Source: an uncultured Flavobacteriales bacterium
Lineage (GTDB): Bacteria > Bacteroidota > Bacteroidia > Flavobacteriales_D > Sanyastnellaceae
Length of the DNA stretch: 64,000 bases
Assembly: GCA_905479115.1 (NCBI GenBank)
Contig: CAJQLF010000006.1
Location: 7,296 to 71,295 of the forward strand
Reading direction: 5' to 3'
Made by a program: the position numbers and the translations under genes. This document shows positions 29,501-42,512 of the stretch, piece by piece. The notes below the pieces were generated by a model that was not told the DNA's origin, made no database searches, and saw only the letters and a program-made list of their open reading frames with translations. Within the stretch, counting starts at the first letter, position 1. The number at the start of each line of letters is the position of its first letter.

Positions 29501-29527
29501 AAAAGCGCCGTCCGGCGCTTTTCTTTT
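29501..29527 (+). terminator. Rho-independent terminator after the POT transporter gene
   Basis: Stem AGCGCC/GGCGCT with a GTCC loop, followed by TTTCTTTT. Confidence 0.7.
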
Positions 29528-29552
29528 GCGATATTGCGAAAAATTCTATGCC

Positions 29553-30104
29553 ATGCCCTTTAGAGTATTTTACCTCCCGTTTATCCTGCTTTTTGGTTCG
29601 TTAGGAACTGGTCTTGCACAATATTCAGGCATCAATTGGATGTCGCTGGAGGAAGCCATCGCTGCCCAGAAAGAAGAGCCGCGCAAAATTGTGATGGACG
29701 TTTATACCCAATGGTGCGGGCCGTGTAAGATGATGATGAGAAACACCTTCACATCAGAGGACGTCATTGCTTATATGAATGCCAATTACTATGCCGTCAA
29801 GTTTGATGCAGAATCTCCTGACCCTGTCACATACCAAGGCAAGACGTTTACTAACCCGGGGTGGAATCCCAACGCACGCGGACGGAATAGCACCCATGAG
29901 CTATCAAGAGCGCTTGGCGTAAACGCCTACCCTACGTTGGTTTACTTCGACGAAAAAGCGACGATTATCGCTCCCATTCCCGGTTACAAAACACCGCCGC
30001 AGCTGGAAATGTATCTCAAATTCTTTGTGAACCAATTTGAGCCCAACGTTCAACAAGCAGAATGGGAAGCCTACCGCAATTCCTTTGTGCCAAGCTTCCA
30101 ATGA
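29553..30104 (+). CDS. Thioredoxin-fold protein (secreted, WCGPC active site)
   Basis: Signal-like N-terminus. VYTQWCGPCKMM CxxC motif. The ATG at 29553 was chosen; the ORF opens at TTG 29526. Confidence 0.8.
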   Translation: MPFRVFYLPFILLFGSLGTGLAQYSGINWMSLEEAIAAQKEEPRKIVMDVYTQWCGPCKMMMRNTFTSEDVIAYMNANYYAVKFDAESPDPVTYQGKTFTNPGWNPNARGRNSTHELSRALGVNAYPTLVYFDEKATIIAPIPGYKTPPQLEMYLKFFVNQFEPNVQQAEWEAYRNSFVPSFQ

Positions 30105-32391: not shown

Positions 32392-34917
32392 TCAGTGAAC
32401 CAAAAGTCGTGACGTCCCCACCTGGTTAGAATTGCGCAACACCACCAAGTAGTATCCAGTTTCAACTCCTCCCAAATCTAACTGCATTGGAGCATCATTA
32501 AAGTAAAGTTCTTTGCTGGTAACCAACCGACCTGAAGCATCCATGACTTCTACAGTAGCCAACCCTGAAAGGGCTGTGCCTCCTTGAATCCAAAATGTCC
32601 CGTTCGAGGGATTCGGATAAACATCGAATACCAAGGCATGAATCTCTGCAACGTTCACAACATTTTCAATAATCACATCAATAGAAGCTGTGCATCCATT
32701 CGCATCTGTAATCGTCAAAACATAGGTTCCAGCAGACAAATTAGAGAGAGTCGGTTCTGAACTGGTAAACGAATCAGGACCTGTCCAGCTGAACTCATAA
32801 GGGAAGGATCCTCCAGAAACAATCAAGCTGATGGAACCCGAACCATCCCCATCGGTTTCATTGGATGAATCCGCGATGACATCAATGTCACAGTAGTAGC
32901 AGCTTCCATCGTCTTCGGTCGCATCGGCATTGTAGTTCTCCGCTTCTGGGTCCGTGCAGCCCTCGACTTCTAACTCGTCGCAAACGCCGTCACCATCAAC
33001 GTCGTTCAAGCAGTTGCCGTCGCAGTCATAGAATTCTTCGGCGTAGGTGCACGATTCATCATCGTCCGTGGCTGTCGCATCGTAGTTACAGGCCATCTCG
33101 TCTGTACAGCCCTCGATTTCCAACTCGTCACAAATACCGTCACCGTCCATGTCGTTCAAGCAGTTGCCGTCGCAGTCGTAGAGTGCTTCGGCATATTCAC
33201 ACATCCCGTCATCATCCGTTGCGGAAGGATCATAGTTGCAAGCTAACTCGTCCATGCACCCTGCAATTTCGAATACATCACAGATACCATCCATATCGGC
33301 GTCATTGAGGCAGTTGCCGTCGCAATCGTACGCTTCGGCAGCATACTCACACGATTCGTCATCGTCCGTTGCTGTCGCATCGTAGTTGCAAGCCGACTCG
33401 TCCATACAGCCTGCAATCTCGAATACATCACATACGCCATCCATATCGGCATCATTGAGGCAATTGCCGCTACAGTCGTAGAATTCTTCCGCGTATTCAC
33501 ACATGCCACCTTCGTCTGTTGCAGCCATATCATAATTACATGCCATCATATCCATGCATCCCACGACTTCCAATTCATCACAAACACCATCCATGTCAGC
33601 GTCATTGAGGCAGTTGCCATCGCAGTCATAATATGTCACTGCAAATTCACACGAACCATCATTGTTGGTCGCATTCGAGTCATAGTTACACGCCATCATA
33701 TCCGTGCAGCCTGCGACTTCCAATTCATCGCATACGCCATCTCCATCCATATCCATCACGCAGTTTCCATCGCAATCGTAATATTCCACAGCATATTCGC
33801 ATGATCCATTGTCCTGGGTAAAGATTGGATCATAGTTGCATGCACTTTCATCCGTGCAGCCTACGCAAGATGTGTATTCGCACGATCCATCCTCTGCATC
33901 CGCTTCAGGATTATAATTGCACGCATTGGAGTTTGTGCATCCCGGGGTACCGCAACTCGTGTAGTCACATGAACCATCATTGTAGACCGCCTCAGGATCG
34001 TAATTGCACGCATCAACATCGGTGCAACCTAAGCAAGAGGAATATTCACACGACCCATTTTCATCCGTTGCTGCAGCGTCATAGTTGCAGGCAAATACAT
34101 CTGTACAGCCTGGAATTTCGAATTCATCGCAAATTCCATCACCGTCCACATCCGAAAGGCAGTTGCCATCGCAGTCATAACCCGTCTGAGCAAATTCACA
34201 TGATCCGTCGTCTGCCGCAGCATCCGGATCATAATTGCATGCTGCTGCATCGGTGCATCCATCGCCCTCAACCTCTGGCGCGTACGTTCCAACACCACAG
34301 AAGGTGTAAGTGAGTCGCAGGTCACCGTCTTGACCATCTCCGTTCACGAAGATTTGAAAATTCATGGTTCCGCAAATTTCTCCGTCCGTCGTCATTTGCA
34401 TCACCAACACACGCAGGTTTTCATCGGGCAACCCATTGGGTGCTCCGTTCAGTATGTACCATGCTCCTCCCGTCTCGTCATCGATGAACACATCTTGGCC
34501 ATCCATCGCAGAGCCAGAAGCGAAGCAATCCGTCCAAGGCTGTTCGGTGCTCTGCAGAGTTGAAGGTGGAACTTGATCACCTGAAGATTGCCCATCAATC
34601 CCGATGGTGACCCAGCTGTCTGCAGCCATTTCAGGGAAAAATGCCAAAAATGCAGGATTAATTCCGTCGGCCGTTACGGCGCCAAAAGGGTCGTTGTAAA
34701 ATCCCGTCGTCGTCGTAATTGAAAGAGGATCCGTATCGCCTCCATAAACGGAAGACAAAAAGTCATCCGCATTGATCATGTCGAAGTACAAGCGGTAAGT
34801 TGTTTGTTCCGGGACGATGTCTGTTGCGTGCTCTTCAAGCGTGATGGTGTATTCCTGAGCCTGTCCAAGGGAAAATACAAATGCCAAGGACAAAAAAAGA
34901 GAAGTGAATCGATACAT
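32392..34917 (-). CDS. T9SS type-A cargo, modular surface protein 'A': signal peptide, unassigned ~190-aa domain, 11 Cys-rich ACNYD modules with 7 TSP3-like linkers, 1 SprB-like repeat, CTD
   Basis: Start MYRFTSLFLSLAFVFSLGQAQ (ATG 34917; the ORF opens at 34950). Repeats of GCTDxxACNYDxxATxDDGSCEY and YDCDGNCLNDxDxDGxCDELE. FSWTGPD...LSAGTYVLTITDANGC. C-terminus VYPNPSNGTFWIQ...GYYLVVLRN is a Por/T9SS type-A tail. Confidence 0.9.
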   Translation of the reverse strand: MYRFTSLFLSLAFVFSLGQAQEYTITLEEHATDIVPEQTTYRLYFDMINADDFLSSVYGGDTDPLSITTTTGFYNDPFGAVTADGINPAFLAFFPEMAADSWVTIGIDGQSSGDQVPPSTLQSTEQPWTDCFASGSAMDGQDVFIDDETGGAWYILNGAPNGLPDENLRVLVMQMTTDGEICGTMNFQIFVNGDGQDGDLRLTYTFCGVGTYAPEVEGDGCTDAAACNYDPDAAADDGSCEFAQTGYDCDGNCLSDVDGDGICDEFEIPGCTDVFACNYDAAATDENGSCEYSSCLGCTDVDACNYDPEAVYNDGSCDYTSCGTPGCTNSNACNYNPEADAEDGSCEYTSCVGCTDESACNYDPIFTQDNGSCEYAVEYYDCDGNCVMDMDGDGVCDELEVAGCTDMMACNYDSNATNNDGSCEFAVTYYDCDGNCLNDADMDGVCDELEVVGCMDMMACNYDMAATDEGGMCEYAEEFYDCSGNCLNDADMDGVCDVFEIAGCMDESACNYDATATDDDESCEYAAEAYDCDGNCLNDADMDGICDVFEIAGCMDELACNYDPSATDDDGMCEYAEALYDCDGNCLNDMDGDGICDELEIEGCTDEMACNYDATATDDDESCTYAEEFYDCDGNCLNDVDGDGVCDELEVEGCTDPEAENYNADATEDDGSCYYCDIDVIADSSNETDGDGSGSISLIVSGGSFPYEFSWTGPDSFTSSEPTLSNLSAGTYVLTITDANGCTASIDVIIENVVNVAEIHALVFDVYPNPSNGTFWIQGGTALSGLATVEVMDASGRLVTSKELYFNDAPMQLDLGGVETGYYLVVLRNSNQVGTSRLLVH
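32893..33861 (-). repeat. In-frame tandem array, 150-bp (50-aa) period, about 6.5 units, inside gene A
   Basis: GC(T/M)D starts fall at aa 364, 414, 464, 514, 564, 614 and 664 of the 852-aa ORF, exactly 50 aa apart. At the DNA level, tccatgcaccctgcaatttcgaatacatca at 33251 recurs as tccatacagcctgcaatctcgaatacatca at 33401. Confidence 0.9.
34300..34854 (-). other. Copy 1 of 5 of the unassigned ~190-aa domain 'X' (in protein A)
   Basis: TTYRLYFDM..DDFLSSVYGGDTDP...FFPEMAADSWVTIG...DDETGGAWYILNGAPNGLPDENLRVLVMQMTTDG..GTMNFQIFVNGDG. Confidence 0.8.
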
Positions 34918-34988
34918 GGTTTTGATTGGGAGAATTCGTTGCGCAGCCAAGTTAGGTCGAATCCGCTAAATCATTAAACGCAAAGGAC

Positions 34989-35022
34989 AAAAAAAAAGCC
35001 AGATGTTCTCACCTGGCTTTTT
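34989..35022 (-). terminator. Rho-independent terminator of gene B
   Basis: AGCCAG/CTGGCT stem with a 10-nt loop. An A9 tract on the + strand gives the U-tract on the - strand, 22 nt past the stop. Confidence 0.75.
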
Positions 35023-35043
35023 GTCTTATTTCTTGCACCAAAT

Positions 35044-38000
35044 TCACCTCACAACTTTTATTTTCTTTTGAATGATACGATTGGTGGCTTTAATCCTCAT
35101 CACATACAAACCATTCGACCAATCGCTGACGTCCAATTTAAACACGTTCTCGTGCGGCACGATAACCCTAGAGGCCATCAGCTTTCCCTGCATATCATAC
35201 CAATCGAGTTGAGAAAACTCCTGATTCATCGGCAACGTCACCTGCACGAAATCATGGGCAGGGTTTGGAAAGACCCGAATGTCCGAGTCCAAAAGCTCGG
35301 CCACGGATACGATGGATTCAACCACAATTTCGAATGATGTTGTCGAGCAGCCATTGCTATCTGTCACCACCAACTGGTAGGTACCTGGATTGAGATTCGT
35401 GATGTCTTCTTCATCGCTTATGAATGCTCCGTCCAGCTGAATCCAACTGAACACATAAGGTCCCACTCCGCCCGTGATAGAGACTGAGATACTGCCTTCT
35501 TCGGCATCGGGAACGGATCCTGTCACATCGTCCAAGAGAGCCAATAATGGATCTGGCTCCTCTACAACTAATTCGAGAACTGCCTCACAACCGGATTCAT
35601 CCGCAACGATGATTACATAGGCCCCACCTGAAAGCCCTGCGAACATTGAATCGGTTTGTATGAGATCTTGCGGCAACAATTGATACGTGATTTCGCTGCT
35701 ATCTGGATACGCCCCTTGAACCGAAATCTCCAACGAACCATCAGCTTCCCCTGCGCATGAAACATCAGAAACACTTGCCGCTGCCGTTATTGTGCAATAA
35801 ACACAGGAACCATCATCGTCGGTTGCTAGCCCATCGAAGTTAATAGCAGAAGTGTCCGTGCATCCAGGCACCTCAAACTCATCACAAATTCCATCAGAAT
35901 CGGCATCTAATAGGCAATCACCGGCGCAGTCCAAAGCTGGCTCGGGGTAGGTGCAAGAACCGTCGTCATCGGTTGCGATTTCGTCGTAATTGCACGCTGC
36001 GGTATCCGTGCAGCCCAATACAGGGTATGCACACGAATCATTGTCGTACTCAGCCTCAGAATCGTAATTCAACGCTTCGCTATCCAAGCATCCACATGCA
36101 TTGGGAAAAACGGGGGGATTCGTCCATGTCGTGCCATCGAATTGAAATTGGTGCAGCGAAGAAGCCGTGTTGTCCCCTCCATTAAACACCTGCACATTCA
36201 ATTGACCATGCATACCTCCCAACGTCGTTACTTGGGCTATCAACACCCGCAGATCATCCCCGGCGACGCCGTTCGAACCTCCATTCAATATGAACCAAGA
36301 GCCACCCACCTCGTCATCCATGACCAGATCATTTCCGGATTCGAATTGAGAGACCCATCCCTCCGGTCCTGAAGAGCCAACAGCGTTAACAGAGTTTTCT
36401 GTATCTGCCGCAGGTCCATCAACTCCAATCGTCACCCAACTATCATATGCTAGTTGAGGGAAAGAACCAATCAGATCTAGATTTATTCCTTGGGCCAAGT
36501 GGGATCCCATCTCGTCCTGGTGCCATCCGGACTCAGCGGCCAGCAGCAAGGTATCTTCGTCGTTGCCATATACAGCGGATACGAAATCCGTCTCAAGAAT
36601 AGTCGTAACAAACATTCTGTACGTAATCATCCCTGCCATTGAACCCGTATCGTGGACCGCTATGGTGTCAATCTCCAAGCCGAAGCTCAAAATTTCATCC
36701 TCTTCACAAGAGCAGAAGTCACAGGTACCGTCATCATCCGTAAAGGCTTCGTCATAATTGCAAGCCGTCGGAGCCGTGCACCCCCCTAACTCTAGCTCGT
36801 CGCACACGCCATCACCATCCGAATCATATAAACAGAGTCCATCACAATCCACAAATTCCCCCGCATACGTGCACGAACCATCCTCGTTCGTCGCGGCAGG
36901 GTTAAAATTACAAGCCGCAGCATCGGTGCACCCCTCAATCGCAATGATCACATGGATGGTTTGCGTCCAATCCGCCTCGTTTCCGCAAGCATCAAATGTG
37001 GTGTAGGTGCGATGGTAGGTCACCGTATCTCCGGACTGAACTACCGTTTCATCTGCAGAAGACCATTGCGCATTTCCATCGCATGCATCTTGCACGGCAA
37101 TGAAGGGTGTCGGAATTTCTTCTCCTTCTTGTTCATTTATCCAAATTTCTGCTGCAGGCAAATTCAAAATTTCCGGTGCCAATGTATCTGCCACACTGAT
37201 CATTTGGATCGCTTGTGCCTGATTCCCTGCATCATCAGTCGCAAAAAATGTTCGTGTGCACAAATAATTGTACGGAGGACAGTCGTAAACGAACTCGATA
37301 GGACCATCGACGAACATGACTTGAACCGTTTCATCACATTCGTCTTCCGCTGTAGCCATTGTGGTTGGCATCGCCTGGTCGCATTGAACAGTCGAATCAG
37401 CGGGAACAAACGTAAAGACCGGTGGAATGATATCATCTAAGCAGGGATCAACAAAATAGTCGCATGAGCCATCCTCATCCGTTGCATCAGCCACATAATT
37501 CGTCGCTTCAGGATCCGTGCATCCCTCAATTTCCAGTTCGTTGCAAACGCCATCTCCATCGTCATCCGCCACGCAGACTCCATCGCAATCGTATGCGACC
37601 TCAGGATATTCACAGCCCGCAAATGACGGCAAACCACAAGCATCTTGCAGACCGATCATTTTGTTGAATCCACCATCCATTCCATCGCCATTTTCGAAAA
37701 ACTGGACATAGAGCTGGCCGTCGAGATTTCCATCGGTGGTAAACTGTCCGAGTAAAACCTTTAAATCCTCACCAGCCACACCGTTCGAAGCCCCATTCAA
37801 AATATACCAAACACCACCTAGGTCGTCTGACATTTCCAAAGAGCCACCCAATTCAAATGGTTCAACCCAAGGATCGAGACCTTCCAAAATACTTATTCCA
37901 GATTCTCCTGCATCCCCTTCGGCTGCAGATTCCAAACCAATGGTAACCCACGAATCATACGCCGCATCCGGTATGAAAGGAAAAACCAGCGGATTCACAC

Positions 38001-39984
38001 TCTGGCCTAATACGCCTCCCGCCTCATGTTGAAAGAAAGAAGTGGTCGTATGAACGAAAGAGGGATTCACATCATCACCTGCAACGGCGCTGACAAAATC
38101 ATCTTGATTCTCGCACAAAGCATAGATTCGATAGGTAACGAATCCTGTCAAATCACTTTCCCCTACAAAACCATCATGCACAACAAATGGCTCTACCTCA
38201 ATGCAATAGCCCTCATATGCCTCATAATTGCATGCCGCTGAATCATGGCATGAAGCGGGATATTCACACGATCCATCATTGTCTGTCGCATTAGCATCAA
38301 AATTCAATGCCATCGCATCCGTGCATCCTATAACTTCCAATTCATTGCAAATTCCATCGCCGTCGTTGTCTCCGATGCAATCCCCTGAACAATCGTAAAA
38401 CTCTTCGGCAAACAGGCACGAAGCATTATCAGCCGTTGTATACGCCGCGTCATAATTGCACGCTTCAACCTCCATGCAACCTATGCAACTTGTGAAGTCA
38501 CAACTGCCGTCGGACGAGGTAGCGTCTGGATTGAAATTGCATGCCAGTGGATTGGTGCAGCCGCTAAGAGCATACACGCAGCTTCCATCATCCTCTGTAG
38601 CCAAGGAATTAAAATTCTCGGCCTCCCCATCTGTGCAACCTAGCACTTCAAATTCGTCGCATACCAGATCACCATCTGCATCGAAAAGACACCCCCCTGC
38701 GCAATCATATCCTTCTTCCGCGAATTGACAATCGGCGGGATCTGAGATGGTATAGGTGGAATCAAAATTGCAAGCCGTGGAATCCATGCAGCCAATGCAA
38801 CTGGTATACTCACAGCTACCATCCGAGGTATTTGCTGTTGGATCGTAATTGCATGCCAATGGATTAAGGCAACCATTGAAAGCACAACTTCCATCATCTA
38901 GTGTAGCAGTAGGGTCGTAATTATCTGCATCCATGTCGGTGCAACCAGCGCATGAACTGTACTCGCATGAACCGTCATTAACGGTTGCCTCAGGATCGTA
39001 GTTACACGCATTGGAAAAGGTACACCCTAGATTTTCGCAGCTTGCATACTCACAACTGCCATCATTGTAAATTGCTTCGGGATCATAGTTGCACGCGGCG
39101 GCATCCGTGCAGCCCGCGCAGGCTAAATAATCGCACGACCCATCTTCTTCCGTAGCATTCGGATCGAAATTACATGCCCAAACATCGGTACATCCTGCGC
39201 ATGTGCCATATTCGCAACTTCCGTCATCCTCGGTAGCGCTTTCATCAAAATTACAGGCTGCAGGATCCGTACAGCCAGGGTAAGCTGCAGAAGGCATCAA
39301 ATCCCAAACATCTGTCCCGTTAAATCCTTGTTGCACTTGTTCCGCATCCAATGCCGGATCAGCTGGAATGATTTGCGCATTCAAAGTTCCTGATGGAACA
39401 CCTGAAGTCGTCACCTGCATAACCAATACCTTCAAATCTTCACCCGCATAACCGTTGGGGGTTCCGCTGAGTAAAAACCATGCGCCACCCAATTCATCAT
39501 CCACAACAAAACCATCTCCATCCGTTGGCGAACCTGCGACGAAATTTTGCAAAAAAGGCTGTTCCTCACTTTGCAAAGCAGAAACATCAGCCTCTCCACC
39601 TCCGCTTGGAGAACTCTCCAAACCAATGGTTACCCAACTATCGTAGGCCACTTCGGGAAAATAGTTTACCACAATGGGTAATATTCCTCCGGCCGTAGAG
39701 CCCGTCGCAAACGGACTGTTGAACATGGGCGCGTCCAAGGACAGCGTCATTGGCGCTGTATCTCCTCCATAAACGGCTGAAACAAAATCATCCGGATCAT
39801 TCAATTCGAGATAAAAACGATAAGTCGTTTGGCCTGCCAATTCCGCCACGCCTTGCTGACCATCGTGAACCATGTACTCTTCGACTACGAACGTACTTCC
39901 TTGTGACCAAGCGAAGGACATGCCGGCGAGTAAATAAATCAATGCTGCGTGAATCACGCCTAAAAGTCGGAAAGAATAGCCCAT
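35044..39984 (-). CDS. Giant T9SS type-A cargo 'B': three copies of domain X, ~18 ACNYD-type modules, 5 TSP3-like linkers, two HYR/Ig-like modules, two SprB-like repeats, CTD
   Basis: The ORF is open to GTG 40035 (1663 aa). ATG 40026 or ATG 39984 (MGYSFRLLGVIHAALIYLLAGMSFAWSQ, signal-like) are the likelier starts. The C-terminus RVFPNPAHDFVQVTL...GLYVMRIKA is a T9SS type-A tail. Confidence 0.9.
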   Translation of the reverse strand: MGYSFRLLGVIHAALIYLLAGMSFAWSQGSTFVVEEYMVHDGQQGVAELAGQTTYRFYLELNDPDDFVSAVYGGDTAPMTLSLDAPMFNSPFATGSTAGGILPIVVNYFPEVAYDSWVTIGLESSPSGGGEADVSALQSEEQPFLQNFVAGSPTDGDGFVVDDELGGAWFLLSGTPNGYAGEDLKVLVMQVTTSGVPSGTLNAQIIPADPALDAEQVQQGFNGTDVWDLMPSAAYPGCTDPAACNFDESATEDDGSCEYGTCAGCTDVWACNFDPNATEEDGSCDYLACAGCTDAAACNYDPEAIYNDGSCEYASCENLGCTFSNACNYDPEATVNDGSCEYSSCAGCTDMDADNYDPTATLDDGSCAFNGCLNPLACNYDPTANTSDGSCEYTSCIGCMDSTACNFDSTYTISDPADCQFAEEGYDCAGGCLFDADGDLVCDEFEVLGCTDGEAENFNSLATEDDGSCVYALSGCTNPLACNFNPDATSSDGSCDFTSCIGCMEVEACNYDAAYTTADNASCLFAEEFYDCSGDCIGDNDGDGICNELEVIGCTDAMALNFDANATDNDGSCEYPASCHDSAACNYEAYEGYCIEVEPFVVHDGFVGESDLTGFVTYRIYALCENQDDFVSAVAGDDVNPSFVHTTTSFFQHEAGGVLGQSVNPLVFPFIPDAAYDSWVTIGLESAAEGDAGESGISILEGLDPWVEPFELGGSLEMSDDLGGVWYILNGASNGVAGEDLKVLLGQFTTDGNLDGQLYVQFFENGDGMDGGFNKMIGLQDACGLPSFAGCEYPEVAYDCDGVCVADDDGDGVCNELEIEGCTDPEATNYVADATDEDGSCDYFVDPCLDDIIPPVFTFVPADSTVQCDQAMPTTMATAEDECDETVQVMFVDGPIEFVYDCPPYNYLCTRTFFATDDAGNQAQAIQMISVADTLAPEILNLPAAEIWINEQEGEEIPTPFIAVQDACDGNAQWSSADETVVQSGDTVTYHRTYTTFDACGNEADWTQTIHVIIAIEGCTDAAACNFNPAATNEDGSCTYAGEFVDCDGLCLYDSDGDGVCDELELGGCTAPTACNYDEAFTDDDGTCDFCSCEEDEILSFGLEIDTIAVHDTGSMAGMITYRMFVTTILETDFVSAVYGNDEDTLLLAAESGWHQDEMGSHLAQGINLDLIGSFPQLAYDSWVTIGVDGPAADTENSVNAVGSSGPEGWVSQFESGNDLVMDDEVGGSWFILNGGSNGVAGDDLRVLIAQVTTLGGMHGQLNVQVFNGGDNTASSLHQFQFDGTTWTNPPVFPNACGCLDSEALNYDSEAEYDNDSCAYPVLGCTDTAACNYDEIATDDDGSCTYPEPALDCAGDCLLDADSDGICDEFEVPGCTDTSAINFDGLATDDDGSCVYCTITAAASVSDVSCAGEADGSLEISVQGAYPDSSEITYQLLPQDLIQTDSMFAGLSGGAYVIIVADESGCEAVLELVVEEPDPLLALLDDVTGSVPDAEEGSISVSITGGVGPYVFSWIQLDGAFISDEEDITNLNPGTYQLVVTDSNGCSTTSFEIVVESIVSVAELLDSDIRVFPNPAHDFVQVTLPMNQEFSQLDWYDMQGKLMASRVIVPHENVFKLDVSDWSNGLYVMRIKATNRIIQKKIKVVR
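36124..36687 (-). other. Copy 4 of 5 of domain X (third copy in protein B)
   Basis: ITYRMFV..ETDFVSAVYGNDED...FPQLAYDSWVTIGVDG...DDEVGGSWFILNGGSNGVAGDDLRVLIAQVTTLG..GQLNVQVFNGGD. Confidence 0.8.
36946..37449 (-). other. Two HYR/Ig-like modules inserted between domain X copies in protein B
   Basis: DDIIPPVFTFVPADSTVQCDQ...AEDECDETVQV...TRTFFATDDAGNQAQAIQMISVADTLAPEI...VQDACDGNAQW...YTTFDACGNEADWTQTIHVI. The conserved Cys/Asp spacing is typical of HYR-like Ig folds. Confidence 0.5.
37636..38205 (-). other. Copy 3 of 5 of domain X (second copy in protein B)
   Basis: VTYRIYALCENQDDFVSAVAGDDVNP...FIPDAAYDSWVTIGLES...SDDLGGVWYILNGASNGVAGEDLKVLLGQFTTDG..GQLYVQFFENGDG. Confidence 0.8.
39301..39897 (-). 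other. Copy 2 of 5 of domain X (first copy in protein B)
   Basis: TTYRFYLELNDPDDFVSAVYGGDTAP...YFPEVAYDSWVTIGLES...DDELGGAWFLLSGTPNGYAGEDLKVLVMQVTTSG..GTLNAQI. Confidence 0.8.
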
Positions 39985-40059
39985 AATCAAATCAAGAGGT
40001 TGAGAGATACGCTTTGTTCTACGCATATCTCGCACCTACGGTTTCGATTTTTGGGCATT

Positions 40060-40103: not shown

Positions 40104-42512
40104 CTATTGCTTCAACAATTGAAGCGTATGCCGAGCTTCATTAGAGGACAACTCCAATTGATAAGCTCCTGCTGCCATTCCAGTTAAGTCAATCGCCGCC
40201 TGCATTGAACCCCACGCCTGATTAATCGTTTGAGACCAAACAACACGCGCCTGAGCGTCATAAACATTCAAAACAATTGCCTCGCCGTTCGCACTGAAAA
40301 TAGCCAGGTTGTACATACCGAAACTTGGATTTGGACTCACTACAACGTCCTGCAGAAACGAATACTCATCCACACCAAGAGGTAATCCGAAAACTTCAGT
40401 TATGGAGCAACCATTCGCATCGGTCACTGTAACTGAATACTCTCCAGCAAAAAGACCGGTCAAGTCTTCATCGGCACTGGTGAAGTTATCCGGACCTTCC
40501 CAAGCGAATGTATTGCCACCGTTTCCGCCCGCTACCGTGATATCAAGTTCACCGTCACCTGCACCCGAATCATTGGTAAGGACGCCTGTAACAGAGAGTG
40601 CCTCTGGCTCTTCCACTGTAACCTCTGCAGATGCCTGACATCCATTAGAGTCCTGCACATAGAACGTGTAAGACCCAGGAGCGATTTCAGTGAACATCGG
40701 TGAAGAGCCAAAATCACTACCGTCAGAACTGTACTCGAACAAGCTCGTTCCACCTGACGCTCCAACCTCAACCAATCCATCAGTATCACCGTTGCACGAA
40801 ACCGCTGTAGAGGTTGCAGTAGCTTCTACCGCACTAATATCATCCACAGTGAATGTGGTTTCGGCGGTGCACCCTTCCATGTCCGTTACCAGCACTACGT
40901 AGTCGCCTGGCAACAAATCCCCAACTGAATTCGATCCATCTGTATCTTCTCCATTGAATGAAAACATAAGGCCTCCATTCCCACCTGTTGCATCGAAAGA
41001 GACCGCTCCGTTTTGGTCTCCGTTGCATGAAATACCGCTGGCATTGCCGGTTATGACAATCGCATCTGGTGCTTCTACTGTGTATTCATTCGCAGAAGAT
41101 GCAATGCACCCGTTCACATCCATTGCATAAAAGGTATACGTACCACCAGCTATATTGAGAATATTACCGGGCGAAAAGTTGATTCCATCCGCACTGTACT
41201 GCATACCAGCTGAAGTTCCAGATCCACCAATGGTAATCAAAGAAACTACACCATCCTCACTATCAGAACATGTCGCTGGTGCAATACCAGATTGTCCATT
41301 TGCTACTGAGACCGTCAACGCCTGGGGATTCGCGATGGAAATGCCTCCGCTTTCCGCAACACAACCGTTGGCGTCCATTGCATAAACCGTATAAAGTCCG
41401 GAACCCAGGTTATCAAAGTAAAGCTCACTTGAGCTGTCTTCAAACGTCGAAGACAAACTATAGTTCATTGCACCAGAACCTCCTGAAGATGACCCAGAGA
41501 TCACGGCATCAGAACCACCATTGCAACTAACGGACTCCGTCATTGCCGCAGAAATCACAACGGCCTCTGGAGCGACAATTTCCACTTCGATCGATGTCTC
41601 ACACCCTGCACCATCAATCGCAGAAATAGTGTAAACACCTCCCGATAGATCATCAAAACTTCCCACTGCCGAAGCTGGTGTCTCACCGTCAATTCCAAAC
41701 AGAACCCCTAACTGCGCTCCTTCTGCATCGACTGAAATCTCTCCATCCGCCACGCCAGGGCATGTGTTTTGAACAATCTCTGCAACCGACAAATTCAATG
41801 AACAAGGAAAGATACATACCTCTCCGGCCTCTGTGGCATCTGGATTGTAGTTGATCGCTTCTGGATCCATGCAACCAAAGACTGCGCCTTCTGAAGAACT
41901 AAATGGAATACTTTCATAAAGTACAGATTCCGACTGCTCGCCATTCACGAAAATCTGGATATTGAAGTTACCTGTAATAACAGCATCATTTTCAACCGTC
42001 AGCTGAGCTATGAGGACTTTCAAATCATCTCCTGCTTGTGCAACGGGATCTCCAAATAACGTAAACCAAGACCCCCCGTTATCAGAGTTCACAATAAAGT
42101 CGCCTCCTGCAGAGAATGAATTGAATGCATCCGTTAAACCAACGGTGTTGTTGGAACCAGATGCTTCGTTTACATTCATGGCACCAATGGTGATCCAAGA
42201 ATCGTATTCAATTGCTGGAAATGCACCAAAAAAAGCAGGGTTCACTTGCCATCCTTCGTTATTGCCAAGAGAGTTTTGATAGAAACCCAAGGTAGAAGTC
42301 AGTGATAAAGGTGCTGTCGCATCACCATACACTGCCGAAATTTCGTCCGCAGGGTTCGTGCACATGGCGAAGACATGGTATGTCGTCATTCCGTCTAGCT
42401 CTCCAATACTCCCGTCGTGTATGACGTAAGGCTCGACACTAATCTCGACTAGTTGTGCAAAGCTGCTTCCAAACAGTAAAAAGCTCGCAGCAAGAAGTAA
42501 AACGTGTTTCAT
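40104..42512 (-). CDS. T9SS type-A cargo 'C': signal peptide, domain X, one ACNYD-type module, six SprB-like repeats, CTD
   Basis: MKHVLLLAASFLLFGSSFAQ. One Cys module (GCMDPEAINYNPDATEAGEVC). Six units of the C(N/S)G..DG...GG....Y.....G.Y...V.D.NGC pattern. The C-terminus VVVSPNPSFGMYNLAI...GAYQLELSS is a type-A tail. Confidence 0.9.
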   Translation of the reverse strand: MKHVLLLAASFLLFGSSFAQLVEISVEPYVIHDGSIGELDGMTTYHVFAMCTNPADEISAVYGDATAPLSLTSTLGFYQNSLGNNEGWQVNPAFFGAFPAIEYDSWITIGAMNVNEASGSNNTVGLTDAFNSFSAGGDFIVNSDNGGSWFTLFGDPVAQAGDDLKVLIAQLTVENDAVITGNFNIQIFVNGEQSESVLYESIPFSSSEGAVFGCMDPEAINYNPDATEAGEVCIFPCSLNLSVAEIVQNTCPGVADGEISVDAEGAQLGVLFGIDGETPASAVGSFDDLSGGVYTISAIDGAGCETSIEVEIVAPEAVVISAAMTESVSCNGGSDAVISGSSSGGSGAMNYSLSSTFEDSSSELYFDNLGSGLYTVYAMDANGCVAESGGISIANPQALTVSVANGQSGIAPATCSDSEDGVVSLITIGGSGTSAGMQYSADGINFSPGNILNIAGGTYTFYAMDVNGCIASSANEYTVEAPDAIVITGNASGISCNGDQNGAVSFDATGGNGGLMFSFNGEDTDGSNSVGDLLPGDYVVLVTDMEGCTAETTFTVDDISAVEATATSTAVSCNGDTDGLVEVGASGGTSLFEYSSDGSDFGSSPMFTEIAPGSYTFYVQDSNGCQASAEVTVEEPEALSVTGVLTNDSGAGDGELDITVAGGNGGNTFAWEGPDNFTSADEDLTGLFAGEYSVTVTDANGCSITEVFGLPLGVDEYSFLQDVVVSPNPSFGMYNLAIFSANGEAIVLNVYDAQARVVWSQTINQAWGSMQAAIDLTGMAAGAYQLELSSNEARHTLQLLKQ
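41898..42452 (-). other. Copy 5 of 5 of domain X (in protein C)
   Basis: TTYHVFAMCTNPADEISAVYGDATAP...FPAIEYDSWITIG...NSDNGGSWFTLFGDPVAQAGDDLKVLIAQLTVEN..GNFNIQIFVNGE. Confidence 0.8.

Follow-up and report, generated by a model that had tools for sequence, protein, structure and literature searches.

Repeats that stand between the head and the anchor of surface proteins, vary in copy number and combine with many partners are familiar from SprB, Ig-like/Big and HYR repeats and from the Pro/Thr linkers of scaffoldins. Tandem acidic DxDxDG loops with flanking cysteines in extracellular proteins are likewise familiar from the thrombospondin type-3 (TSP3) repeat and from other calcium loops of this kind (EF-hand, Binary_toxB). 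In the animal pore-forming protein MPEG1/perforin-2, a short stretch at the hinge joining the MACPF domain to the P2/MABP domain has been called an "EGF-like repeat" or a "truncated EGF-like domain" (PMC6989145), and structural papers treat it as a small folded linker. Here we describe a cysteine-containing module of about 23 residues, referred to below as the bead or, from its sequence, the ACNYD unit, which has features in common with each of these systems. It occurs in the products of three neighboring genes (A, B, and C) within a 64,000-nucleotide stretch of DNA (the window) from an uncultured marine Flavobacteriales bacterium (GCA_905479115.1, contig CAJQLF010000006.1, positions 7,296 to 71,295). 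In many places beads alternate with a second element of 24 residues, termed the calcium-loop linker.

The bead is an undescribed family of an ordinary, known kind, of which the window alone is one ordinary instance. Neither Pfam nor NCBIfam holds a model for it, and four linker-less modules gave no Pfam match even at E ≤ 10, which agrees with a first-pass annotation of the window that could attach no family name to the unit. Compared with the linker repeats of other surface proteins, the bead is much shorter (23 versus 80–100 residues), appears to be disulfide-based rather than a beta-sandwich, and is coupled to calcium loops. The calcium-loop linker differs from TSP3 wires in that it always alternates with a bead and carries a Glu at loop position 12.

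Conservation and cysteine parity of the bead

The three genes are co-directional, and the N-terminus of each product is signal-peptide-like. Protein A consists, in order, of a signal peptide, a domain of about 195 residues that we call X, 11 beads with seven calcium-loop linkers, an SprB-type repeat and a type A C-terminal domain (CTD) of the type IX secretion system (T9SS). Protein B has three X domains with beads after each, an HYR-like insert, two SprB repeats and a T9SS CTD, and protein C has an X domain, a single bead, SprB repeats and a T9SS CTD. In all three proteins the beads thus have X domains (N-terminal or internal) on one side and the SprB repeats with the CTD on the other, the bead of C standing between its X domain and its SprB repeats. 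The CTDs scored 50.4 (A), 48.5 (B), and 30.9 (C) bits against PF18962 (cut-off 27) and also passed TIGR04183; in A, Pfam Por_Secre_tail was matched at E = 2.9e-13, together with SprB.

With a hidden Markov model (HMM) trained on protein A's own 11 modules, we counted 30 beads: A has 11, C has one, and B has 17 complete copies plus a truncated one (residues 594–607). Linkers fitting C.G.C..D.D.D..C[DN]..E number 12, of which seven are in A and five in B. The first-pass annotation, reading from the translations, had given 11, about 18, and one module and 12 linkers, and its range of 32,890–39,276 corresponds to the outermost modules of A and B (32,887–34,263 and 35,791–39,279), the bead of C (41,805–41,879) lying outside. 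A loose module pattern was found 27 times in the proteins versus 0.0015 times in shuffled proteins. Module starts in A are spaced by 50, 27, 29, and 27 residues and then six times by 50, and the linker-less beads have a spacer of 4–7 residues to the next bead with one extra Cys each, giving a 4-Cys form. Cys makes up 12.4% of the 459-residue array of A and Asp plus Glu 28%, and Lys and Arg are absent; the six Cys per 50-residue unit and the high acidity noted earlier were both borne out.

Conservation was assessed in 1273 unique modules out of 120 homologues. Four positions, G2, C3, Y/F11, and C22, are 100% conserved, A8 and N10 are conserved at 99%, A15 and Y/F24 at 95%, G20 at 87%, and D19 at 84%, and the positions between them are free. 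The first and third cysteines are therefore invariant among relatives, a point on which the proposal of a structural disulfide had been made to depend. Of this set, 85% have the middle Cys (position 9), as against only 58% of the unique modules in the broader family, the consensus of which is a 2-Cys bead, GCxDxxAxNYxxxAxxDDGSC. In A, seven modules lack the middle Cys or stand in the linker-less 27-residue spacing. The description of the unit as a 3-Cys module accordingly holds for its commonest form in the window and fails as a description of its only form: from the sequences, the core family is the 2-Cys bead, and the third Cys is an add-on that probably ties the bead to what follows.

Presence of the middle Cys tracks the number of cysteines in the following spacer. 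Beads without it had no Cys in a short spacer in 73 of 74 cases; beads with it had exactly one Cys in a short spacer in 199 of 207 cases, and three in a long spacer in 533 of about 556. The same rule emerged from a larger tally of about 2,750 distinct units with no additional internal Cys, the counts being phylogenetically non-independent: a middle Cys went with an odd spacer count in 1514 units versus 156, and its absence with an even count in 1050 versus 28. Units therefore contain two, four, or six cysteines, and this parity points to a staple between the first and third Cys of each bead and to pairing of the middle Cys with the element behind it. In some relatives, beads have an extra Cys at position 16–17 (AxCDDGSC), apparently replacing the spacer Cys. 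Relatives also contain another inter-bead linker of about 30 residues with three Cys, PCDDxNxxTxxDxxxxxDCxC, and a short inter-bead element, LGDVNCPEPCNV.

Known families and the predicted fold

Among sequences in the PDB, MPEG1/perforin-2 was the only family matched by bead profiles. A two-module profile matched MPEG1 at E = 1.4e-4, and a 2-Cys bead profile (76 sequences) matched human MPEG1 with 27.9 bits (E = 1.5e-5) over profile positions 1–23 and the mouse protein with 23.2 bits; the best match of a reversed-sequence control profile had E = 0.61 and 13 bits. The matched stretch comprises residues 331–353 in human MPEG1 (6U23/6U2J), 332–354 in mouse MPEG1 (6SB3), and 4–25 in 6SB1, a 2.05-Å P2-domain crystal construct of the mouse protein, and it fits the motif GCxDxxxxN[FY]xxxAxxDDxSC along its full length. 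A phmmer search of the PDB with the whole of protein A returned chance-level matches to the SprB-like region only and so missed MPEG1, for which a profile was needed. The bead and the MPEG1 module have in common a motif of 22–23 residues, G-C-T-D/N-x-x-x-x-N-F-N-x-x-A-N-x-D-D-G/D-S-C, and a place as a small connector between larger domains. The MPEG1 module differs in being a single copy in an animal pore-forming protein, with neither a calcium-loop linker nor an array, and in having Ser-Pro in place of the bacterial Ala-Cys, hence the 2-Cys form. The first-pass annotation had allowed that the unit might already have a defined family and structure; a structure does exist, in perforin-2, whereas a family does not.

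EGF-like domains have six cysteines paired 1–3, 2–4, and 5–6 in about 40 residues. The MPEG1 motif has two Cys, not six, which makes EGF a poor label for it, and we rejected an EGF-like assignment for the bead, which has two or three Cys in 23 residues and gave no match to an EGF family at E ≤ 10. Photosystem I subunit N (Pfam PsaN) was matched with E = 2.6e-11 on two of 41 bead-rich proteins of the global library described below; as only these two of the 41 match, PsaN was not taken as a property of the bead. Our literature searches on the ACNYD unit, on T9SS/TSP3/cysteine-rich repeats, and on the GC-type dockerin found nothing relevant.

Beads also occur in viral sequences. IMG/VR contigs matched in 349 stretches, marine phage proteins modeled in BFVD also contain beads, and a Foldseek search of BFVD with the three-bead model described below gave 13 viral models at E ≤ 0.001. 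Among the phage carriers are a crass-like "muzzle protein" of Virus NIOZ-UU157 as well as Rhs-like and PA14 proteins of cyanophages, and a bead was also found on a 65-kb IMG/VR contig. A bead protein on a 322-kb "viral" contig is of Bacteroidota type with a type-B T9SS CTD, and this contig may be a provirus or misclassified. Two giant-virus MACPF proteins, A0A3G4ZMM5 (Terrestrivirus) and A0A2I2L4X5 (Orpheovirus) in BFVD, gave local single-bead structural matches over 22–28 columns (root-mean-square deviation 0.4–1.1) that are suggestive only. On these models, the pairing of MACPF and bead in animal perforin-2 may extend to giant viruses.

The consensus of the 50-residue unit, from 647 distinct units, is xGCTDxxACNYDxxATDDDGSCxYAExGYDCDGNCLNDxDGDGVCDE(F/L)E(V/I). 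Its linker contains three Cys, and positions 38–49 read D-x-D-x-D-G-V/I-C-D-x-x-E, the canonical pattern of a 12-residue EF-hand loop, its eighth residue being Cys. Of the 647 units, 582 fit the loop as D.[DN].[DN]G.[CILV][DN]..[ED]; D38, D40, D42, G43, and D46 are conserved at 91%–98%, the Glu at loop position 12 at 99%, and the middle Cys of the bead at 99% in units with this linker. Judged by its pattern, the linker is an EF-hand-type calcium loop, and by no threshold is it a TSP3 repeat. A six-linker fragment scored 10.5 bits (E = 0.59) against TSP3_bac (PF18884; cut-off 25) and gave no TSP_3 (PF02412) match at E ≤ 10, and the whole proteins A, B, and C had no TSP3 match at E ≤ 0.1. The earlier proposal of a TSP3-like linker is thus retained for the DxDxDG core and dropped for membership of the family, since the score lies below the Pfam threshold and Glu at position 12 is the EF-hand pattern; the likeness is the shared DxDxDG loop. 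We also rejected assignment to Binary_toxB (PF03495), for which the summed score was 28.9–30.5 bits (cut-off 25) with all stretches confined to profile positions 2–18 of 78, that is, the calcium loop alone. The linkers of the window had no match to the Pfam EF-hand models (PF00036/PF13405), and the predicted helix around the loop amounts to three residues after it and none before, whereas an EF-hand is a loop between two helices. Some homologues of the array have precomputed PF18884, PF03495, and PF00036 matches.

A fragment of A with three beads and two linkers (residues 413–538, 126 residues) was modeled with AlphaFold2 from a 54-row alignment of homologous fragments. The model had a mean predicted local distance difference test score (pLDDT) of 95.3 and a predicted template modeling score (pTM) of 0.64, and apart from a 3-residue helix behind each calcium loop it shows hardly any regular secondary structure.

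Spread, partner domains and neighboring genes

The first-pass annotation considered a dense array of this kind unusual on a bacterial T9SS protein, which for this clade is contradicted by its spread. The 2.27-Mb genome of the organism itself has about 252 modules on 41 open reading frames (ORFs). In a global library of 1.84 billion cluster representatives at 50% identity, a linker-less two-module profile gave 19,121 matches at E ≤ 0.001 and 10,350 at E ≤ 1e-10, in proteins of up to 6,618 residues with 102 matched stretches. A search with the array of A found more than 7,000 significant proteins among 8,000 candidates scored. Of 120 listed homologues, about 30 have a source name, which is never more than "hypothetical" or "T9SS type A sorting domain-containing protein"; the organism names given are metagenome-assembled genomes (MAGs) of Flavobacteriales or Crocinitomicaceae. 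Sampling of the same family gave the module in each of 22 genomes, and for the same order the figures were 77 of 151 genomes and 38 of 70 genera; in a sample of 201 genomes of the phylum, five matched, all of them from this order. A scan of species-representative genomes gave at least 594 matching stretches, nearly all on marine Flavobacteriales MAGs and a few on MAGs labeled Nitrosopumilus, Gammaproteobacteria, or Pelagibacter. We did not accept these few as a wider spread, as they are most likely mis-binned Flavobacteriales contigs: the two inspected, labeled Nitrosopumilus and Gammaproteobacteria, have the X domain, and one is a complete ORF with a T9SS-type tail, LSIYPNPTNGNF.

The X domain is present in 36 copies in the genome and in 44 of 151 genomes of the order. 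AlphaFold2 predicts it to be a beta-sandwich (pLDDT 96.3, pTM 0.92), and Foldseek returned weak matches only (TM-score about 0.3), to Ig-like domains of MSCRAMM adhesins, several cohesins and many other beta-sandwiches. Elsewhere in the genome, beads stand ahead of the C-terminus in a GH81 glucanase, an Endonuclease I/LTD protein, an esterase with a carbohydrate-binding module (CBM), an X25/CBM48/CBM20 protein, three FG-GAP/ASPIC proteins, and one LTD/cupredoxin-like protein. The C-termini behind them are either T9SS CTDs or GC-type dockerin tails. Beads were found in eight of 67 ORFs with a T9SS CTD versus 23 of 32 ORFs ending in a cysteine-bracketed dockerin-type tail, and in the latter they lie just upstream of the tail. 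Orthologues of A that are 62%–86% identical in the head have 10–12 beads and 5–7 linkers, differing by whole units, and the array architecture recurs in independent assemblies.

The dockerin-type tail, CPxDxNxDGxVxxxDLLxFLxxFGxxCxE, is present in one or two repeats on these 32 ORFs, carriers including the GH81, Endonuclease I, esterase, and CBM20/48 proteins and three tandem FG-GAP/ASPIC genes. Tails with two repeats matched NF041540 ("GC-type dockerin") with 37.1 and 33.1 bits (cut-off 29) as well as Pfam Dockerin_1, and those with one repeat match the second half of NF041540 only. The GC-type dockerin is the usual neighbor of the bead; the internal calcium-loop linkers of the window matched neither NF041540 nor Dockerin_1 (PF00404).

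The features of the locus are listed in Table 1. A secreted thioredoxin-fold protein (WCGPCK, signal peptide) is encoded at 29,526–30,104 on the plus strand, about 2.3 kb from gene A, with a citrate synthase gene and an enoyl-CoA hydratase-like gene in between. It may serve the Cys-rich cargoes as a disulfide oxidoreductase or have nothing to do with them.

Table 1. Coordinates of genes A, B, and C and their parts in the window, with examples of dockerin-tailed loci elsewhere in the genome
Feature	Position (nt)	Residues	Strand	Basis
Gene A	32392-34950	852 aa	minus	ORF
Gene B	35044-40035	1663 aa	minus	ORF
Gene C	40104-42512	802 aa	minus	ORF
Bead and linker array of A	32887-34263	230-688 (459 aa)	minus	profile and pattern search
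Seven modules of A at exact 50-aa spacing, six of them followed by a calcium-loop linker (the 150-bp tandem array at DNA level)	32887-33864	363-688	minus	
Four linker-less beads of A	33787-34113	280-388	minus	HMM
X domain of A, unassigned beta-sandwich head	34264-34860	31-229	minus	jackhmmer and AlphaFold2
X domains of A, B, and C (five)	34264-34860, 39295-39885, 37627-38211, 36109-36675, 41877-42443			
First bead array of B: 11 complete beads, two calcium-loop linkers, one truncated bead	38215-39279	253-607	minus	
Calcium-loop linker and 2-Cys bead of B	37450-37587	817-862	minus	
Bead, calcium-loop linker, bead of B	36709-36936	1034-1109	minus	
Bead, bead, calcium-loop linker, bead of B	35791-36096	1314-1415	minus	
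Single 2-Cys bead of C	41805-41879	212-236	minus	HMM, E = 7.6e-10
T9SS type A C-terminal sorting domains	A 32401-32622, B 35056-35274, C 40131-40337		minus	PF18962, TIGR04183
Example loci with dockerin-type tails, outside the window	C9:97093-107358, C30:2971-5667, C57:2439-4184			

The array as a probable spacer and other readings

We read the arrays as a disulfide- and calcium-stabilized acidic spacer or stalk whose length is set by copy number, and place the probability of this reading at about 0.6. The ACNYD unit would be an autonomously folding bead of about 23 residues, stapled by a disulfide between its first and third Cys; in the 3-Cys form, the middle Cys would bond one Cys of the 4–7-residue spacer or one of the three in the linker. 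The 12-residue EF-hand-type loop, D-x-D-x-D-G-x-C-D-x-x-E, would be expected to hold Ca2+, the concentration of which in sea water is about 10 mM. Strung together, beads and calcium loops would give a tether or stalk that is braced by covalent cross-links, strongly acidic, and free of Lys and Arg, and its length would follow copy number. The array would hold the X heads apart from one another and from the T9SS CTD, by which the protein would be anchored at the cell surface. What we infer here is which cysteines pair, that the loops bind Ca2+, that the array is rigid, and that the proteins are displayed on the surface. A structural spacer fits the many partners, the position between domains, the variable copy number and the existence of a homologue that is itself a connector, and the stalk proposed in the first-pass annotation likewise fits this context, the variation in copy number, and the AlphaFold2 model.

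Several points weigh against this reading. The perforin-2 homologue is called a hinge, and by analogy the array could be a flexible tether instead of a rigid rod; the conserved N10 and Y/F11 could form a binding site instead of being core residues. The disulfide pairs are deduced only from cysteine parity, a rule broken by about 9% of the units with a middle Cys, and natural co-loss does not reveal which linker Cys is the partner of the middle Cys, as 665 of 677 units retain all five. The bacterial members are known from sequence and a predicted model alone, and a Foldseek search of the PDB with the three-bead model gave no match at E ≤ 10, because the model has too little secondary structure and its sole relative there spans 22 residues.

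Were the array itself to bind cations, mineral or particle surfaces, or polysaccharides multivalently, presenting Asn-Tyr/Phe and acidic residues with avidity from the many copies, one could understand why N10 and Y/F11 are conserved at 99%–100%, why the array is 28% acidic without basic residues, why some proteins have dozens to about 100 matched stretches, and why beads are also found on phage structural proteins. We nevertheless consider this unlikely: nearly all invariant residues of so small a domain are needed for its fold, the surface positions in between vary freely, the same proteins already come with dedicated binding modules (CBM20/48, X25, F5/8C, LamG), and perforin-2 uses a single bead as a plain linker. 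A function could instead reside in the linkers, as docking or self-association sites resembling dockerins or cadherin junctions that mediate Ca-dependent protein–protein or cell–cell adhesion, with beads providing mere spacing. The loop with its short helix does resemble one dockerin/EF-hand repeat, and true GC-type dockerin tails are present on 32 ORFs of the same genome; however, the linkers have no Dockerin_1 or EF-hand Pfam match, lack the long amphipathic dockerin helix (three helical residues are predicted), have their three Cys committed to cross-links, and are internal, a single protein having up to 15 of them, rather than terminal. We consider this reading the more doubtful of the two. 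We give hardly any credence to the array being a low-complexity acidic region or an assembly artifact without a defined fold. Tandem repeats of 150 bp in a short-read MAG do invite that suspicion (Tandem Repeats Finder gave about five copies in the DNA of A), but the copies match at only 73%–77% of DNA positions, a divergence that argues against an assembly artifact, the architecture recurs in independent assemblies, conservation is position-specific, and the model has a pLDDT of 95.

The arrays may also be set in a larger scheme, an improbable one in our estimation, in which they would be calibrated inter-module linkers of a cellulosome-like surface display, with X as a cohesin-like receptor and half-dockerin tails as its ligands. 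The receptor would be carried both by the T9SS-anchored proteins A, B, and C and by multi-X proteins with a dockerin tail of their own, an arrangement that we again think improbable. The ligands would be the cysteine-bracketed half-dockerin tails of the 32 secreted ORFs (GH81, Endonuclease I, esterase, CBM, FG-GAP/ASPIC), with equally low odds. In the same scheme, and no more probably, the bead would be an ancient unnamed domain common to phages, giant-virus MACPF proteins, and animal perforin-2. X as a cohesin is speculation.

For the spacer reading and for the family as a whole, the wider meaning lies in the scale of what has gone unnamed: a 23-residue domain, found in about 19,000 protein clusters and contributing visibly to what abundant marine Flavobacteriales secrete, is without a curated model. 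With a curated HMM of the bead, thousands of giant proteins now labeled "hypothetical" would become legible as a head, a stalk, and an anchor. The link to the perforin-2 hinge and to giant-virus MACPF proteins corrects the "EGF-like" label, and the perforin-2 hinge gains a large natural sequence family for comparison. As a disulfide- and calcium-braced spacer of modular length without Lys or Arg, the array may also serve the engineering of extracellular proteins.

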